A DNA stretch of 64,000 nt. It comes from Ostreococcus lucimarinus (Eukaryota). The notes beneath the pieces were generated by a model that saw only the letters and a program-made list of their open reading frames with translations, ran no database searches and was not told the origin of the DNA. This document shows positions 1 to 7,180 of the stretch, one piece after another. The stretch lies in assembly GCA_000092065.1 (NCBI GenBank), contig CP000581.1; one strand, 5' to 3'. The translations under genes were made by a program, and so were the position numbers. Within the stretch, counting starts at the first letter, position 1. Every line of letters starts with the position of its first letter.

Positions 1-161
1 CCCTAAACCCTAAACCCTAAACCCTAAACCCTAAACCCTAAACCCTAAACCCTAAACCCTAAACCCTAAACCCTAAACCCTAAACCCTAAACCCTAAACC
101 CTAAACCCTAAACCCTAAACCCTAAACCCTAAACCCTAAACCCTAAACCCTAAACCCTAAA
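1..161. repeat. Telomeric repeat array of 23 perfect (CCCTAAA) units (TTTAGGG on the opposite strand); left chromosome end
   Basis: Perfect heptamer tandem repeat read directly from position 1. The C-rich strand runs 5'->3' into the chromosome, as expected for a left telomere. TTTAGGG is the plant-type telomere unit. Confidence 0.95.
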
Positions 162-216
162 AACCGAACCCTAGTCATCCAAACCCTCGTTTATCCCGCC
201 CTCACTAACGTAGTCC
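162..216. repeat. Degenerate telomere-associated repeat remnants
   Basis: Immediately follows the perfect array and contains decayed aaccct units: ccctaaaaaccgaaccctagtcatccaaaccctcg. Confidence 0.5.
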
Positions 217-938
217 TCAACCCAAAACCAGTATCACACATTTCCAAAAAACCCAAACCGCGGCCTACGCCCGCGTCGACGTAAAGGTCCGGGTCGCCGC
301 CGTCACCCAGAGTGCCGCGAAACGCGCGCGTACATAGATGCAAATGCGTGTTTCATGCGTGTGCGCAAAATTCCAGCGTCGTCGACCGCCAGTGTAGTGG
401 TTTCGGTGACCCCTTTACTCGCGCAACTTTCAGGGCGCCAAAAGCGTCATGTTCCAGAGACACTGCTAACCCAAGTTTCTAACCCTAGTTTCAGGGAGGC
501 GCGTTCGAGGGGCGACGCGCTGGGAGACGACGCGGGACGACGACGGCGACGTGGGTGAATCGTTTTGCATTCGTATTTCTTTTATTTCTAGCCCGCGATC
601 GTTCATTCGCGATCCCCGTGTGGTTCGCGCATGTGCATCTTCACCGCGGGAGGATCAATTCTAATTCTACACGTTACATTTCTAAAGCTTCATCGTTCAT
701 TTTCACTCCCGACGCGTGTCACACATGTGCATCTTCACGCGCGCGTCCCAGCGCGACGAGGAATCGCGCGTCTCGCTTCGCGTACAAACATTCGCGCGCA
801 TGCGCGGCGCATGTTCTCGCGTGCGTCGCTCGTGCGCGTGCGCTCACAAACACGTACGCTTGACGCAAGTCGCTCTCGATGAAGCCGCCGCGAAGAAACG
901 AGAAGTAGCACACACTTAGCGTTTTTTAATTCCATAGT

Positions 939-3671
939 TTATGCGAGCTTGAGCAAAAAGTTCGGGTCGTTCGTCGACCCGGGGTACGTGTATAGTTGGA
1001 CGTCGGGTACGCAGATGGAGACGCCGCCAATGTCGACGTCTGTCTTGAGCACGACGTCAATGTCGGTTTTTGGAACTTGGAAGTACGCACCGACGACGAC
1101 ACTGCAATCGACGCCACCAAAACTTGCGCTTGAGCAGCGTTTTGCCCTGTAAGCGTCGTCGTATTCGAAGTTGTCGTTGAACTTGGCGCTCAACGCAGAG
1201 CACGCTTGTGTGCCTTGATTGTTCACAGTCGCGGCCATGTCCGCACCGGCATACGCTCTCTGCTCGGCTTTCATTTTCGGACCACTGCAAACCATGCCAG
1301 GCATACATAATTGCGTGGTGATGTCATTAACAGTTAAGACGAGCCCAACTTGAGCATGTGCATGCAAGTTGGCGTTCAAGTAGGGCGTCAATTCTACCTG
1401 CGGATCTGGGAGCACGGCGTTCAACGTGCCGTCGGTCACTAGTATACCGACTTCCATTCCCGTGACATCGACGCTGTAAGAGAACTCACCTTTCGCTTCT
1501 GCCTGCAAGAAGTACGGCAACGAAAGGTCAGCGCCCAAAGACATCTTCATCGTGAATGGAGTGTACGGAACTGGCAATTCCACCTCGAATGAAGCAGACG
1601 TTGGCAAGCCTTTCACCAGATCAAGCACGTTGCCAGATTTGAATGCAGACGCTTGCGCCTCGACGGCGAATTCCACGTGAAGCTTCGTGAACAAAACTGC
1701 TTTCATCGTGAAATCCTTGAGGGCCTGCATCGCATCGATAAGTTCCTGCTTGGCGGCGTCTGCAGCGTCCTGCAGGACGGCATCGCCAAGCTGCGCGTGC
1801 ATGTGTGGAAACTGCGTGATTGTATCTGGCTTTTCAAGCCAAGGATCTTCCAAGAGTGCGGTGCGTACTTTTGCGACTTGCAGCAAAACAAGGTGCTCGA
1901 CTCTATCCAGAAACTGATCGTGTACATTTTCAGCGTACTTGAGATGCGCGCTGCTCGCGGCGTGCACAGCGCGAAGGTGTTCCGCATGCGTCTCGATCTC
2001 ATCAGAAAGCAGCTTCCGGCCGCTGAGAGACTGCGTGACAGAGTTGAGCTTGGATTTCACAGTGTTTGCTGTGTCCTTCGCCGTATTTACGGAAGATTTC
2101 AGTGCGTCGATCGGACTCATCATAGAATCTTTAACTTCGTCCGCGGCGTCCAAGGCGCCGTCTCCAATTGATTGAAACAGAGGTTTGAAAAAAGCCATGA
2201 ACGCGTCGAGTATCCCCGTCGCCACTTTTTTGGGGAATAAGAACTCACTTATTTCAAAGCCCATGGTCCAGGACGGATCTGGAAATCCAGCCGTGAGGGT
2301 TGCTGGCGCGAAAGGACTGTCACCAAGCTTTTTCGGCCACGGCATGTCGTAAGATAGATCGACCAATGAAGCGGGTAGAATCTCCTCAAGAGGCAGGGAG
2401 ATGGTGAGCTCTGGTGTCCCACATTTGCCCCCGAGGTTCGCTTGCTCCTCGCTCGGAATGTGCGTTTCCTCTCTGCCAAGAGCGTCGCGGATCATCGCAC
2501 GCACGCGGTTATGAGCCAAAACCGTCGAAAAATGGTCACTCTTGCCGTTCACCACTCGGGATCCAGCTTCTGCGCTGCTCGCACCGAGTGACGCAGTTTT
2601 GAGAGCGCCCGTTATCTGACTGAGGAACTCATCTGCGTCAGCCGGAAACGCTTCGCTGATGAGTTGGTTGACAACTTTGTTCACCGCGTTTGGAATGCTC
2701 TTGGAGACGTCCTCAATCTTACTCGCGATCTCGTTCGCCTTGTTCGGGATCGCGGTGGTGAGATCGTTGATGACGTCATTAATATCGTTGATGGTGGTGG
2801 TGACGGCAGACTCGGCGTTTTTAATCGCACCAACCGTAGAGTCATACGCGGCGGTGAGCGCCGGATCGACGATGCACTTCGTGTTCGAATCACGAGCCAC
2901 AAAAAACGGCGCGCACGCATCGCATTTGCCAGTCGTAACGGTCGCGGCCTTCGTGCACCTGAATGACCATTTGTAAGGTATGTCCTGACACGCTCCGGGA
3001 GTGCATCCACCTCCGCAGCGTCTTTTGCATACCGTTCTACATCTATATCTTCTTCTTCTTCTTCTGCAGCGCACCGCTGTTCTGCAGCAAAAAGTAGGAG
3101 CACAAATTCGAGGGGCACAGATTCTGCGCGTCGCGCAGGTACCCTTGCTACCCGATGGAACATATCCGAGCGCGCACGCAGGAACAGTGGAGCAAGTTCC
3201 CTGGTACGAGCACGACCGAACCGCCAATTGCGGAACGGCGCAGTTCGCGGGAGCGCTACCACTGCTGATTGAACAGGCACCGAGCGTCGCCGATGCGTTT
3301 CCTGTCGCGGGTGATTCAAAATATTCAATCTCCTTCGATCCACCCAGAGAGGCTGCAGAAGCTGTCGAACGCCCGAAAAGCTTGTCGACGCGCATCCGCG
3401 TCACCGCGGCGTAGTACCGCGCGTAGCCCACTCCGACCGCTCCGACCGACGACACCACGTGGGCGGCGCTGACATCGGTGAAAAACTGACAAAACCCAAG
3501 CACAGCGACGCAAGCCGCGAGAAGCGCGCCGAACAACGCGCGCGCCCGACCCGAACGTCGCGAAACCGTGCGAACGCCCGCGCTCGTCGATGCCGACGCA
3601 TCGGGAATCGCCCCATACTTCACTACCGAGACGCGCGCGATCGAGGCGCGTTCATCAGCCATCGTCGTCAT
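939..3671 (-). CDS. Large subtelomeric membrane-anchored protein, paralog A (910 aa). It has an N-terminal signal-anchor, an amphipathic helical repeat region, a Cys/Arg-rich insert, a conserved PWPKKLG core and a beta-rich C-terminal domain. Family unknown.
   Basis: Continuous 910-codon ORF with high GC3. The ALFGALLAACVAVLGF hydrophobic anchor lies near the N-terminus. The protein is collinear with the divergent downstream gene at about 30% identity: YDMPWPKKLGDSPFAPATL~YEMPWPKKLGSSPFSPAKF, GRKLLSDEIETHAEHLR~GRRLLSEEDIAEHHHELR, GAYFQVPK~GAYYQVPK. Confidence 0.7.
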   Translation of the reverse strand: MTTMADERASIARVSVVKYGAIPDASASTSAGVRTVSRRSGRARALFGALLAACVAVLGFCQFFTDVSAAHVVSSVGAVGVGYARYYAAVTRMRVDKLFGRSTASAASLGGSKEIEYFESPATGNASATLGACSISSGSAPANCAVPQLAVRSCSYQGTCSTVPACALGYVPSGSKGTCATRRICAPRICAPTFCCRTAVRCRRRRRRYRCRTVCKRRCGGGCTPGACQDIPYKWSFRCTKAATVTTGKCDACAPFFVARDSNTKCIVDPALTAAYDSTVGAIKNAESAVTTTINDINDVINDLTTAIPNKANEIASKIEDVSKSIPNAVNKVVNQLISEAFPADADEFLSQITGALKTASLGASSAEAGSRVVNGKSDHFSTVLAHNRVRAMIRDALGREETHIPSEEQANLGGKCGTPELTISLPLEEILPASLVDLSYDMPWPKKLGDSPFAPATLTAGFPDPSWTMGFEISEFLFPKKVATGILDAFMAFFKPLFQSIGDGALDAADEVKDSMMSPIDALKSSVNTAKDTANTVKSKLNSVTQSLSGRKLLSDEIETHAEHLRAVHAASSAHLKYAENVHDQFLDRVEHLVLLQVAKVRTALLEDPWLEKPDTITQFPHMHAQLGDAVLQDAADAAKQELIDAMQALKDFTMKAVLFTKLHVEFAVEAQASAFKSGNVLDLVKGLPTSASFEVELPVPYTPFTMKMSLGADLSLPYFLQAEAKGEFSYSVDVTGMEVGILVTDGTLNAVLPDPQVELTPYLNANLHAHAQVGLVLTVNDITTQLCMPGMVCSGPKMKAEQRAYAGADMAATVNNQGTQACSALSAKFNDNFEYDDAYRAKRCSSASFGGVDCSVVVGAYFQVPKTDIDVVLKTDVDIGGVSICVPDVQLYTYPGSTNDPNFLLKLA

Positions 3672-3845
3672 GACTGCGCGCGACGAGACAATCCTTCGGC
3701 GCGGAGGTCACGCGACGCGCGCGCGCACCGAAGTCACGACCGACTCGCGTCGCCCAACAGTCTCGCCGACAAAAAGGGTGTTGACGCACATCACGAGCTA
3801 TTCACATATATTAAGACGTTTTGCACTAATAAACGCGTAACGGCT
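3672..3845. promoter_or_regulatory. Putative bidirectional promoter between the head-to-head paralogs; AT-rich island with a TATA-like element
   Basis: A 174-bp interval lies between the two divergent start codons at 3671 (-) and 3846 (+). A local AT-rich patch (ttcacatatattaagacgttttgcactaataaacg) carries atatatta at 3806-3813, about 35 bp upstream of the + strand ATG. Confidence 0.4.
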
Positions 3846-6299
3846 ATGATTTTTAAAACACGTCGATTGAATTGCGCGAGACGCGCGGGCGACGCCAATC
3901 CGCGACGTCGCGACGTCGCGAGCGGCGCAGCGATGGGTGGACGCCGATGTTTTTGCTCGCGATCCTCGCCCGTGGGCGTCGGGGCGCCCGCGCCCGCGCG
4001 GCGGCGGCGGCGGTGCGCGCGGGCATTCGGTGCGCGGGTGCTGTTCGTGTTGATGCTCAGTGGGTGCGGGCGCGCGTCGGGTGCGTCTGCGGCGCGCGGG
4101 CGGGCGGCGGCGGCGACGGCGGAGACGACGACGACGACGACGCCCAGGGTGCGGGCGAGCCGTGTCGACGTCTCGCACCAGCGCTCCGATCTCGGTGATT
4201 TCATAAGTGACTTGAGGGACAACATCAATCGCGTGGAAAATTTGTTCAACGCGGGTAAGAACGCGTTCAATCAAGTTGGCGCGGCGTTCGACGACTTGAG
4301 CAGGGACATACAATCCTTCCCAGGGAAAGTTAATGGTGTGAAGAATGAAGTTGGCAAGCTCGTCGGAACCATCGGTGATAAGGTTGAAGGTTTCTTGGAA
4401 GAAGTGTACGGAAAGCTCTTTCCGACAGACGCTGGTTCCATGGTGAACGATATCGCTGGTAAGTTTTCGCCAACGGCGTCTCTGGGAGAAGGTCGCGACG
4501 GACCGTATTTTGAAGATACATCCGCGATCGGTGGTCTCGTTCGAAGACTCAATCAAGACGTTCTCAGAGATGATCTTCGCCGCGTTCTGTATAACGATTA
4601 CGCCTCACAACTTGGCGCCGCACATAAACGCGCAGCCGAGCTCGGCTGCTCAACCTTGCCCGCAAATACAACCGACGGGGAGGCGGCAAAACTTGGATGT
4701 ACTTCCATCAAGAGTCTGAGCCAAGTATGCTACGACGCCCCGATGCGCGATTTGTTTCCTGAATCGGCATTTTCACAAGAATACGAGATGCCTTGGCCTA
4801 AGAAATTGGGAAGCTCTCCGTTTTCACCCGCGAAATTTGACGTTGGATTTCCAGTCGCCTCGTGGGAAACGTGCGCTGGCATAAACAAGTTCAACATTCC
4901 AACCAAAGTCGCCACAGATCTCATTAACGCGTTTCGACTCTTCTTTGGCGCCTTGTTTGATGGCATACAGGAAGGCGCGACGGAGGCGGCGACCGAGGCG
5001 AAGAACGCAATCATGGTTCCAGTCAACGCCATCGACGCGCAAATTGCAGTAATCAACAACCACTTGAAAACAGCGCAGGACCACATGAACAGTATTTCAC
5101 GCGTGTTCGGTGGAAGGCGTTTGCTTTCCGAAGAAGATATCGCTGAACATCACCACGAACTTCGTCGACACACGGAGGCTTTGGCTGCTTCCATCGCACA
5201 TGCCGATTTTGTGTACAAATCACAAATGCAACGCATCGAAGATCAAGTCTTGCTGGGTCTCGAACAAATCAGAGAAGTACTCATTCTCGATCCTTTGCTC
5301 CAGGATCCGAAGAAAATGGCCAATTTCCCGGATTACGGTGCCCTCTTGGAAAGGCGCGCAAGAAAAATGGGTGTTGAGCACGATACCGCTGAGCTTGGCG
5401 ATGCGGTTGAGAAACTGCGATCTGCGCGACGAGCGCTCACGAGCGCAATGGCAGAACTTAAAAACACCGATCTCGATATCGGCGTCTCATCGGATCTCGA
5501 GCTCACGCTCGAGGCGACGCTCAAGGGCGATGCTTTCGTACAAGGTGATTTCTTCGAGTCCATCATGGAGAAGACCAAGAAGCCAATCGAGAATCCTACC
5601 GTGATAAGGAAACAAGTTATGGGCGCTTATGGCTTCTATGTCAACTTGGCTTTTGGCGTTGGCTTCAAGTTGCCGTACTTCGCAAAGGCTGACGCAGAGG
5701 CCAAGCTCCGATATGGACTTTCGATTCCTGATATGAAGATTGGAATCAAGAGCGAAAAAGGACAGTTCTCCGTCTACTTTAACCCTCCGCAGCCGCACCT
5801 CGACGAAGACGGGCTCGAAGCGTCTGTATCGGCGCACCTTCAAGTCGGCGCCGAGCTCGAGATACCAATGGTGCAAATCGAGTTGTGCTGGGCTGGAGCG
5901 ATTTGCTCTGGTCCCGAAGTGTACTTCTCTCAAGGTGCTCAAGTCGGTCTGGACATGTTCGCAGCTGCCATGAACACCCCACCACCGTGTTTCGATGGTG
6001 AAACCACGCTTGCGACGTATTTCACCGATTTTGACTATCCAAGTAAGCCCGCTACGTGTTCGCTTACGGGTTCCGGTATGGCGGCGGGCGTTGGCGCGTA
6101 CTATCAAGTACCAAAGCCTGATGCGCTCGTCAAACTCGTCACGACGATCAGTTCGCCGTGTGAAGTTGACGTCCCGGATGTCGTTCTTTACAAATCCAGC
6201 AAGGAGGACGGCTTTTTCGCTCAAGGGGAAATTTTCCCACCTCAATGCGGCGCTGACATCGAGGCTGGCTCGGAACCCCCGCCAGATAAGTGTGGGTAG
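3846..6299 (+). CDS. Large subtelomeric membrane-anchored protein, paralog B (about 817 aa from the ATG at 3846). Same architecture as paralog A but without the Cys/Arg insert.
   Basis: The ORF runs to 6299. The upstream part of the ORF track (3459-3845) overlaps gene A on the other strand, so I place the start at the first ATG after it (3846). An alternative start is at 3933. The R-rich segment followed by hydrophobic VLFVLMLSGC is signal-anchor-like. It shares the PWPKKLG core, helical repeats and a C-terminal beta-rich domain with paralog A. Confidence 0.7.
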   Translation: MIFKTRRLNCARRAGDANPRRRDVASGAAMGGRRCFCSRSSPVGVGAPAPARRRRRCARAFGARVLFVLMLSGCGRASGASAARGRAAAATAETTTTTTPRVRASRVDVSHQRSDLGDFISDLRDNINRVENLFNAGKNAFNQVGAAFDDLSRDIQSFPGKVNGVKNEVGKLVGTIGDKVEGFLEEVYGKLFPTDAGSMVNDIAGKFSPTASLGEGRDGPYFEDTSAIGGLVRRLNQDVLRDDLRRVLYNDYASQLGAAHKRAAELGCSTLPANTTDGEAAKLGCTSIKSLSQVCYDAPMRDLFPESAFSQEYEMPWPKKLGSSPFSPAKFDVGFPVASWETCAGINKFNIPTKVATDLINAFRLFFGALFDGIQEGATEAATEAKNAIMVPVNAIDAQIAVINNHLKTAQDHMNSISRVFGGRRLLSEEDIAEHHHELRRHTEALAASIAHADFVYKSQMQRIEDQVLLGLEQIREVLILDPLLQDPKKMANFPDYGALLERRARKMGVEHDTAELGDAVEKLRSARRALTSAMAELKNTDLDIGVSSDLELTLEATLKGDAFVQGDFFESIMEKTKKPIENPTVIRKQVMGAYGFYVNLAFGVGFKLPYFAKADAEAKLRYGLSIPDMKIGIKSEKGQFSVYFNPPQPHLDEDGLEASVSAHLQVGAELEIPMVQIELCWAGAICSGPEVYFSQGAQVGLDMFAAAMNTPPPCFDGETTLATYFTDFDYPSKPATCSLTGSGMAAGVGAYYQVPKPDALVKLVTTISSPCEVDVPDVVLYKSSKEDGFFAQGEIFPPQCGADIEAGSEPPPDKCG

Positions 6300-6542
6300 A
6301 GTCAAACGAGAAACCTCTTTTTCATCCAACTCACCGGCCTCGCGTAGCAGCTTGCCCCGAGTAAAATACATACACAGAAGACATACATACGTGTTCCCAA
6401 ACCAGACGCTCGGCCTCCGCCGTCAGTTGTTTCCGTCGCCGCGATGTCCGGTTGTTGCGTAGTCGCACTCGAGGTGGACGCTCGCGAGTGTCTCTTCGGC
6501 GGGTCCCGCCCGCGTTGTCTTTCGCCTCCTTTCCAGGCGAAA

Positions 6543-6631
6543 GACTGTTTTCGAAAAAGTTGAAAGTTGAAATTGACTGTTTGCGAAAAAGTTGAAAGTT
6601 GAAATTGACAAAAAAGACTGTTTTCCGAGCG
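6543..6631. repeat. 32-bp tandem direct repeat (2 full copies plus a partial third) in an AT-rich island 3' of paralog B
   Basis: gactgttttcgaaaaagttgaaagttgaaatt at 6543-6574 is repeated with one mismatch at 6575-6606, then a partial copy follows. Each unit has an internal doubled gttgaaa. An 8-bp-stem hairpin, taccgtcg(caccgta)cgacggta, follows near 6643-6665. Confidence 0.85.
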
Positions 6632-7023: not shown

Positions 7024-7147
7024 ATGCGCGTCAGCGCGGTGCGTCTTCGTCTGCGCGTCGCGTCGCCCGGGCGCGCCGCTGACGCGCGCGCGCGAGGGAC
7101 GCGACGCATGACGCGCGCGAAGGATGCGATCGTCGTCGACGACGGGA

Positions 7148-7180
<33 letters not shown>

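Follow-up and report, generated by a model that had tools for sequence, protein, structure and literature searches.

The trypanosome VSG and Plasmodium var genes and the subtelomeric duplications of yeast and Chlamydomonas are among the closest described parallels to the locus considered here, a divergent pair of large genes (A and B) at the telomeric end of a 64,000-nucleotide stretch of Ostreococcus lucimarinus DNA (contig CP000581.1, assembly GCA_000092065.1; hereafter the window). As in these systems, A and B lie only a few kb from telomeres and encode proteins predicted to be secreted or placed at the surface, and as in other subtelomeric families they appear to be copied between chromosome ends, with variable copy number and with junctions in shared subtelomeric elements. 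In contrast to VSG/var-type families, A and B occur as one or two pairs rather than as arrays, show one-to-one orthology and purifying selection, and are sometimes internal, neither silent donor copies nor hypervariable regions being apparent at the loci examined.

Substrates of the site-1 protease (S1P, SKI-1/SBT6.1), such as arenavirus GPC, plant pectin methylesterase, SREBP, and ATF6, resemble A and B in combining a conserved basic-basic-Leu-Leu motif in a predicted exposed loop with an N-terminal secretory signal. However, A and B have no recognisable sequence or fold similarity to any known S1P substrate, and the likeness is one of motif only. The likeness to apolipoproteins, apolipophorin-III, and LEA proteins is compositional, spans only ~120–135 residues with scores under the cut-offs, and leaves the conserved core and beta domain of A and B without a counterpart. 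The “accordion” repeats of Ostreococcus outlier chromosomes, with their tandem expansion and contraction, terminal deletion followed by a new telomere, and translocation between ends (PMC13390643), offer a close parallel to the behaviour of the locus. With its housekeeping genes (ribonucleotide reductase, malic enzyme, and PFK2), the window is not evidently the small outlier chromosome, and unlike the “accordion” repeats, the A/B unit is a defined cassette of two genes that has been kept in different genera.

The Mamiellales (Ostreococcus, Bathycoccus, and Micromonas) rank among the most abundant eukaryotic phytoplankton, and to our knowledge almost nothing is known at the protein level of their surface biology, including virus attachment, mating, and cell contact. 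The locus described here represents an orphan family specific to its lineage, arranged as a conserved cassette of two genes within dynamic subtelomeres. Our tentatively favoured reading is that A and B are co-regulated secretory proteins, anchored at the N-terminus, which may form a hetero-complex, undergo S1P-type cleavage, and be carried on a relocating subtelomeric cassette. The pair defines a strongly constrained two-gene module of large predicted surface proteins with no known relatives. It brings a maturation site that can be tested (RRLL/RKLL) and, in [AS]-x-L-G, a second motif that recurs in linkers. The locus further provides a sequence-resolved case in which one cassette has been duplicated, lost, and moved among chromosome ends in natural populations, with a bearing on structural variation in tiny compact genomes. 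With both gene targeting and telomere-to-telomere assemblies at hand for O. tauri, these predictions are directly testable.

Conservation of the divergent gene pair

A and B align collinearly with 29% identity over 672 residues (BLASTP E = 2e-77), a similarity that, at this E-value and length, is far beyond chance. On this alignment they are ancient collinear paralogs, in agreement with the roughly 30% identity proposed in a preliminary description of the locus. Motif pairs at matching places (A/B) comprise YDMPWPKKLG/YEMPWPKKLG, GRKLLS/GRRLLS, LPYF in both, LCMPGMVCSGP/LCWAGAICSGP, and GAYFQVPK/GAYYQVPK, and every landmark quoted in that description was located at corresponding positions in the two proteins. 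Both open reading frames (ORFs), of 910 and 817 residues, were likewise found divergently arranged as described.

Orthologs of A and B are present in five further lineages, with identities (A/B) of 89/87, 72/76, 69/75, 55/58, and ~32/35%, and wherever a contig spans both sides the two genes lie head to head, down to 32% identity. Ratios of nonsynonymous to synonymous substitution (dN/dS) against the 88%-identical lineage are 0.16 for A and 0.22 for B, and those against two more distant lineages are 0.17/0.16 and 0.16/0.12 (A/B), with the core the most constrained part of the proteins and the first 100 N-terminal codons the least (dN/dS ~0.6). These comparisons show A and B to be real, intact, and intron-free genes under purifying selection, and show that the head-to-head arrangement predates the split of the sampled lineages. 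In a neighbour-joining tree, A and B form a clade separated from the single-gene paralogs with 97% bootstrap support, and the most distant pair, P0074 and P0073, carries A-like and B-like C-terminal tails respectively.

The flanks of the pair show no detectable homology among six lineage groups. The pairing survives this loss of flanking synteny, as well as duplication and divergence to 32% identity, which argues that selection acts on the pair as a unit, and from this follow probable co-regulation and a joint function, most simply as a hetero-complex. It is alternatively conceivable that A and B are paralogs with independent functions, kept adjacent by a short regulatory region that is hard to split in a compact genome, with the telomere link a by-product of unstable chromosome ends. 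The more distant family members are single genes, no conserved motif is found in the intergenic regions of the six lineages, and terminal rearrangements (large deletions, duplications, and translocations) are documented in Ostreococcus chromosomes (PMC13390643), all of which fit independence, but the persistence of the pairing makes this explanation unlikely.

The preliminary description also proposed a shared bidirectional promoter. The conserved divergent arrangement keeps this proposal plausible, whilst the six-lineage comparison yields no conserved promoter motif in its favour; a candidate conserved word resembling GGGTGTTG failed a k-mer test and was rejected. The interval had been characterised as 174 bp long, AT-rich, and bearing a TATA-like element. 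Its length is correct (3672–3845, measured to the first ATG of B, or 261 bp to the second ATG at 3933), but the GC content of the whole interval is 0.57, and only ~3800–3860, where TATATTAA sits, is AT-rich.

Relocation of the cassette between chromosome ends

Comparison of contigs shows that the A/B pair behaves as a ~5.6-kb cassette that duplicates and relocates in one piece, repeatedly into subtelomeres. The arrangement of the window, in which A is indeed the first gene inside the telomere, with 778 bp between the telomere tract and its stop codon, is confirmed by L022, by L099 (an 80-kb scaffold that begins 350 bp from the A tail), and by more than 10 short-read contigs of ~6.3 kb. All of these short-read contigs, which come from more than 10 samples, end at 871, 68 bp beyond the A stop codon, and at (GAC)n near 7160. 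In the long contigs L019 and L020 the cassette is 98–99% identical in nucleotide sequence to that of the window (dS 0.002–0.008), with identity ending at 931, 8 nt past the A stop codon, and at 6545; the flanks differ on both sides. The window element 492–593 recurs at 87% identity just outside the cassette in both contigs, and on the inner side of L019 this copy directly adjoins the cassette in the orientation of a former chromosome end. On the outer side of both contigs lies an AAA-ATPase gene, followed by telomere repeats. L003 likewise has an AAA gene close to the pair, but this gene and that of L019 are unrelated beyond the AAA fold.

Telomere repeats lie 230–300 bp (L013 and L007), ~0.7 kb (L020), 2.7 kb (L019), and 9 kb (L003) from the pair in five contigs that represent three lineages. 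A third family member, encoded at 447–4847 of L062, lies 2.7 kb from a 77% copy of the window element 442–848 at the end of that contig. Together these positions bear out the link to subtelomeres drawn in the preliminary description. The L062 protein (1466 residues) is close to P0077, is 24% identical to B (E = 4e-38), and combines a weak ricin-B lectin match near its N-terminus with a long helical repeat array.

Copy number varies within a single lineage, with at least one distant paralog type in addition to the one or two pairs present per locus. Within the 72%-identity lineage, L003 and L009 hold one unit each, and L007 and L001 hold two in tandem with a period of 5888 bp. Direct repeats of 83 bp (L003 6597–6679 and 12481–12563; L007 49–131 and 5937–6019) are spaced by exactly this tandem period, and those of L003, which bound the single unit together with a diverged remnant of the A-downstream region, correspond to the tandem-duplication junction. 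The telomere of L007 abuts exactly on the outer edge of the 83-bp repeat, and the distal urease cluster of L003 is missing there.

The cassette of the window holds two genes only and has no flanking inverted or direct repeats, long terminal repeat (LTR), transposase, or integrase. As terminal inverted repeats, transposase, and integrase are all lacking, relocation most likely proceeds via subtelomeric recombination, break-induced copying, and telomere healing, rather than by transposition.

The preliminary description further linked the pair to the contingency and surface gene families housed in many subtelomeres. In a developed form of this idea, a position at the chromosome end would allow recombination to diversify or switch a variant coat, for instance in escape from prasinoviruses. 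Telomere repeats 0.2–9 kb from the pair in the window and five other contigs, near-identical cassettes in differing contexts, one or two units inside one lineage, a third member that is also subtelomeric, and the rapid change of the N-terminal 100 codons are all features such a family would display. However, overall dN/dS values of 0.12–0.22 in three ortholog comparisons give no indication of diversifying selection, orthology is one-to-one with identity dropping smoothly from lineage to lineage, and each locus holds one or two copies, with no array, nor any family copy besides A and B, in the 64-kb window. The pair is also internal in L042, and the (TCT)6 tract of A is constant in length among five same-species contigs. 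We therefore set the contingency interpretation aside as distinctly unlikely.

Three further features of these contigs were recorded. The end of L020 (12686–12988) consists of TTAGGG 6-mer repeats rather than TTTAGGG, with an interstitial (TTTAGGG)3 and a ~190-bp duplicated block inside, and may reflect either a long-read homopolymer error or a true variant repeat. In L013 (50–105 and 253–275), which represents the most distant pair lineage, the telomere is followed at once by three copies of CGGGTATGAAAATTGTT, and an interstitial telomere repeat lies just ahead of the tail of the A-like gene. L001 (PBUZ01000041.1), which holds a tandem A/B pair at 72–79% identity, was deposited as a “Methanobacteriota archaeon” metagenome-assembled genome (isolate RS440), and looks like a mis-binned picoalgal contig.

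Predicted architecture and candidate processing site

The AlphaFold2 (AF2) model of B begins with a five-helix bundle, followed by small helices and strands around the PWPKKLG core. The Phe-rich segment then leads into a 69-residue helix, a loop of sequence GGRRLLSEE, and a 53-residue return helix, with the RRLL loop modelled at a predicted local distance difference test (pLDDT) score below 50 between helices 324–392 and 400–452. The C-terminal domain is built of strands 25–30 residues long, in which polar and hydrophobic residues alternate, and across the family this domain carries invariant Cys.

Site-1 protease recognises the consensus R-(R/K/H)-L-(A/L/S/T/F), as in the RRLL site of Lassa GP-C (PMC2685025), and plant pectin methylesterases, which carry RRLL/RKLL cleavage motifs, lose their pro-region in the Golgi to a subtilisin-like protease (PMC4008260). 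The RKLL of A and RRLL of B fit this consensus, and in the model of B the motif lies in a low-confidence loop. Within the wider G-(R/K)-(R/K)-L-L-S motif, RRLL or RKLL is kept in 20 of the 22 family members compared, against a mean column identity of only 15%; one member is without any [RK][RK]LL match, and the sole match of another lies at a different position. By analogy with these substrates, we infer that A and B may be cleaved at RKLL and RRLL. A second motif, [AS]-x-L-G, occurs 3–9 times per family protein compared with ~1–1.7 expected (z = 1.8–7.7, and at least 2.5 in 20 of 22 members), and occupies conserved linker positions between predicted domains, such as TASLG of A (window 2586–2600). 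Half of the six sites in B adjoin low-confidence segments of the AF2 model, and the motif may represent a further processing site or a helix cap.

The Cys/Arg-rich stretch of A had been suggested to be either an EGF-like module or an unrecognised intron containing (TCT)n, and neither suggestion is supported. The ORF is continuous in all lineages, and the stretch is in frame and conserved in the orthologs, P0076, and P0083, so it is coding sequence and not an intron; the (TCT)6 tract itself (3048–3065) encodes RRRRRR. A Pfam scan showed no EGF family even at E ≤ 1. In P0015 and P0074 the Cys-rich domain is replaced by Lys/Ala/Glu-rich repeats.

Proposed mode of action

A location in the secretory pathway or outside the cytosol is suggested by the N-terminal anchor, the Cys-rich domain, the invariant Cys, and the lectin-like domains of relatives. 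Each protein would enter the pathway by its N-terminal signal-anchor, leaving a short basic tail in the cytosol and the remainder extracellular or lumenal. In A this basic tail comprises the 44 residues ahead of the anchor, and is conserved between species (RYGAIP). The exposed part would consist of amphipathic helical bundles, the PWPxKLG core, a helical hairpin of ~100 Å, and a C-terminal sheet of very long strands. A and B, co-produced from their shared upstream region, would act as a hetero-complex, the existence of which we infer from the conserved pairing. A subtilase of the site-1-protease type would cut each precursor in the hairpin-tip loop, at its conserved G-(R/K)-(R/K)-L-L-S, and such cleavage in the Golgi would yield two chains kept together by the hairpin. 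The activity of the complex could be adhesion, membrane activity or remodelling, or that of a receptor, for example for viruses.

Several observations weigh against this model. The preliminary description assigned a hydrophobic signal-anchor to both proteins, which stands for A but is in doubt for the B of the window, where no 19-residue window reaches a Kyte-Doolittle mean of 1.5 and the hydrophobic stretch covers only ~11–13 residues. The corresponding segments of B orthologs span 17–20 residues, and AFGARVLFVLMLSGCG of B may act either as a signal peptide or as a weak anchor. With a pLDDT of 63 and a predicted TM score of 0.44, the AF2 model of B is moderate in quality, such that the description of its fold is tentative, and modelling of the conserved core alone gave a worse result (pLDDT 51). 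The placement of P0074 and P0073 inside the A and B clades has bootstrap support of 54% and 67%, and the point-estimate tree pairs P0074 with P0073. The pair lies mid-contig in L042 (145 kb), and is thus not always subtelomeric. A and B contain one N-glycosylation sequon each, few for a large secreted protein, and their basic pre-sequences, hydrophobic stretch, and A-x-A can also be read as organelle or lumen targeting.

The last two points lead to the explanation to which we give least credence, namely that A and B reside in an organelle, for instance in the thylakoid lumen or the envelope, directed there by a bipartite transit or twin-arginine signal and using their strands as a membrane beta-sheet. 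In addition to the scarcity of sequons, 44–60 residues with Arg runs precede the hydrophobic stretch, this stretch ends in VSA/ASA, and the C-terminal strands alternate hydrophobic and polar residues as such a sheet might. On the other hand, extracellular proteins typically carry domains such as the 20-Cys one of A and the ricin-B-like one of relatives, the tail of A is conserved between species, unlike transit peptides, and an S1P-type site implies passage through the Golgi.

A more far-reaching version of the secretory hetero-complex model, which we offer as an improbable extension, would make A and B a hitherto undescribed type of surface machine in picoalgae, heterodimeric, matured by proteolysis, and active on membranes, whose new fold would combine a long helical hairpin and very long beta-hairpins. 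This machine would serve as virus receptor or in defence, or in gamete recognition or fusion, and would spread between chromosome ends as a self-contained unit by break-induced copying and telomere healing.

Searches for known families

Membership of a Pfam, NCBIfam, or PDB family was judged by a score at or above the curated family cut-off or by a significant E-value, and on these searches A and B fall outside every family tested. No Pfam family scored above its cut-off, with Baculo_PEP_C (17.2 bits, cut-off 38) and ATG17_like (20.7 bits, cut-off 43) the best matches, and NCBIfam gave no match with E below 0.001. Searches of the PDB by phmmer and by profile returned coiled-coil-type matches only, confined to the helical region (E ≥ 3.7e-4), and Foldseek comparison of the moderate-quality B model with the PDB and BFVD gave nothing significant. 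The sub-threshold matches, all of coiled-coil or amphipathic-helix type, include ApoLp-III, ApoA-I, Baculo_PEP_C, coronavirus (CoV) S2, paramyxovirus F0, and HA2. Those to ApoLp-III and ApoA-I lend weak support to the apolipophorin/LEA-like helices of the preliminary description, which did not recognise the family, in agreement with the sequence and profile searches. We found no paper on the A/B gene family in the literature.

A profile search of 1.84 billion cluster representatives recovered 75 proteins at E ≤ 1e-3, 46 of them at E ≤ 1e-10. None of nine longer matches scanned against Pfam reached a family cut-off, with one showing a weak ricin-B lectin match, and nothing useful was gained from a third homolog search, word-indexed and based on a profile of 31 sequences. 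An apparent bacterial relative, L002, was rejected as a chance match to GAYYQVPKTD in a filamentous-haemagglutinin-like protein. In two of the distant family members, P0086 and P0095, the C-terminal ~450 residues comprise three copies of an unannotated ~150-residue repeat (SG.MSW..G.TN....E..LH.AGHA.N ... LR..R) with no Pfam match.

These searches also bear on the idea of a domesticated or endogenous viral or mobile-element cassette, in which two envelope-glycoprotein-like genes arrived together. The boundaries of the unit are sharp and its neighbours differ in every lineage, its GC content of 0.55 is somewhat below that of most neighbours, and it combines an S1P-type site, as in arenavirus GPC, with a protease-site-plus-long-helix layout and with weak matches in the helices, all sub-threshold, to CoV S2, paramyxovirus F0, HA2, and baculovirus PEP. 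However, no relative was found among the viral contigs of IMG/VR, and the fold search against BFVD gave nothing significant (best E 0.007, TM < 0.2). No transposase, integrase, terminal inverted repeat, or LTR accompanies the cassette, the 83-bp repeats are explained by tandem duplication, identity declines in smooth steps under purifying selection, and the GC content at third codon positions lies within the range of neighbouring genes. A class I viral fusion protein in particular is contradicted by the N-terminal position of the anchor, and by the acidic residues S-E-E-D that follow RRLL in place of a fusion peptide. A viral or mobile origin is, on this evidence, very improbable.

Organisation of the locus

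The coordinates of the locus are collected in Table 1. Gene callers pick the second ATG of B, giving P0016 (788 residues), whilst an entry of the Tara gene catalogue corresponds to the 817-residue form, with 816 of 817 residues identical. The longer form is plausible, as the stretch between the two ATGs remains open and in frame in the 88%-identical lineage (DANPRRR versus DATPRRR).

Table 1. Features of the A/B cassette and its surroundings (window positions; aa, residues of the protein)
Feature	Position	Strand	Evidence or remark
Telomere, (CCCTAAA)23	1–161	.	Repeat count, perfect repeats
Non-coding subtelomeric spacer, 777 bp	162–938	.	Holds elements 442–848 and 492–593
Gene A, 910 aa, “A” subfamily of the orphan family	939–3671	-	ORF, BLASTP, orthologs, dN/dS 0.16–0.17
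A: C-terminal beta-rich domain, ~aa 660–893, with LPYF, LCMPGMVCSGP, GAYFQVPKTD	990–1700	-	Alignment, model
A: GRKLLS motif, aa 551–556, candidate site-1-protease-type cleavage site	2004–2021	-	Alignment, consensus match
A: conserved core, YDMPWPKKLGDSPFAPATL (aa 441–459) to Phe-rich VATGILDAFMAFFKPLF (aa 483–499)	2175–2351	-	Alignment
A: Cys/Arg-rich domain, aa 133–266, 20 Cys	2874–3275	-	In-frame conservation in orthologs, P0076, P0083
A: hydrophobic signal-anchor, 20 residues, aa 45–64	3480–3539	-	Hydropathy
Divergent intergenic region / 5' leader	3672–3932	.	Contains TATATTAA at 3807–3814
Gene B, 817 aa (788 aa from ATG 3933), “B” subfamily	3846–6299	+	ORF, BLASTP, dN/dS 0.12–0.22
B: N-terminal hydrophobic segment AFGARVLFVLMLSGCG, then ASGASA	4023–4070	+	Hydropathy
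B: conserved core, YEMPWPKKLGSSPFSPAKF to VATDLINAFRLFFGALF	4782–4958	+	Alignment
B: GRRLLS motif	5112–5129	+	Low-confidence loop between two long predicted helices
B: beta-rich C-terminal domain and B-specific Cys tail FPPQC...DKCG	5460–6296	+	Alignment, model
B 3' flank, still part of the common cassette	6300–6545	.	Match to L019/L020 stops exactly at 6545
32-bp tandem duplication, begins at cassette breakpoint	6543–6609	.	Sequence repeats

The unit of the 32-bp tandem duplication is GACTGTTT[T/G]CGAAAAAGTTGAAAGTTGAAATT, and the start of this array coincides with the end of the identity shared with L019 and L020. The window has a GC content of 0.53–0.70, dense intron-free ORFs, a TTTAGGG-type telomere, and matches in marine metagenomes, all of which suggest a prasinophyte resembling Ostreococcus, most likely of the Mamiellales. 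No tRNA or Rfam RNA was found in its first 9 kb, and overlapping ORFs at 555–882 have no support as genes.

A 61-nt direct repeat lies in the subtelomeric spacer (584–644 and 678–738, 70% identical and 94 bp apart). Neighbouring ORFs of the same lengths (645 and 592 residues) occur in the window and in L003; these share no homology, and the agreement in length is a coincidence. Beyond the cassette, a (CGA/GAC)n microsatellite at 7137–7180 encodes poly-Asp in the 645-residue ORF, and more than 10 independent short-read assemblies terminate there.

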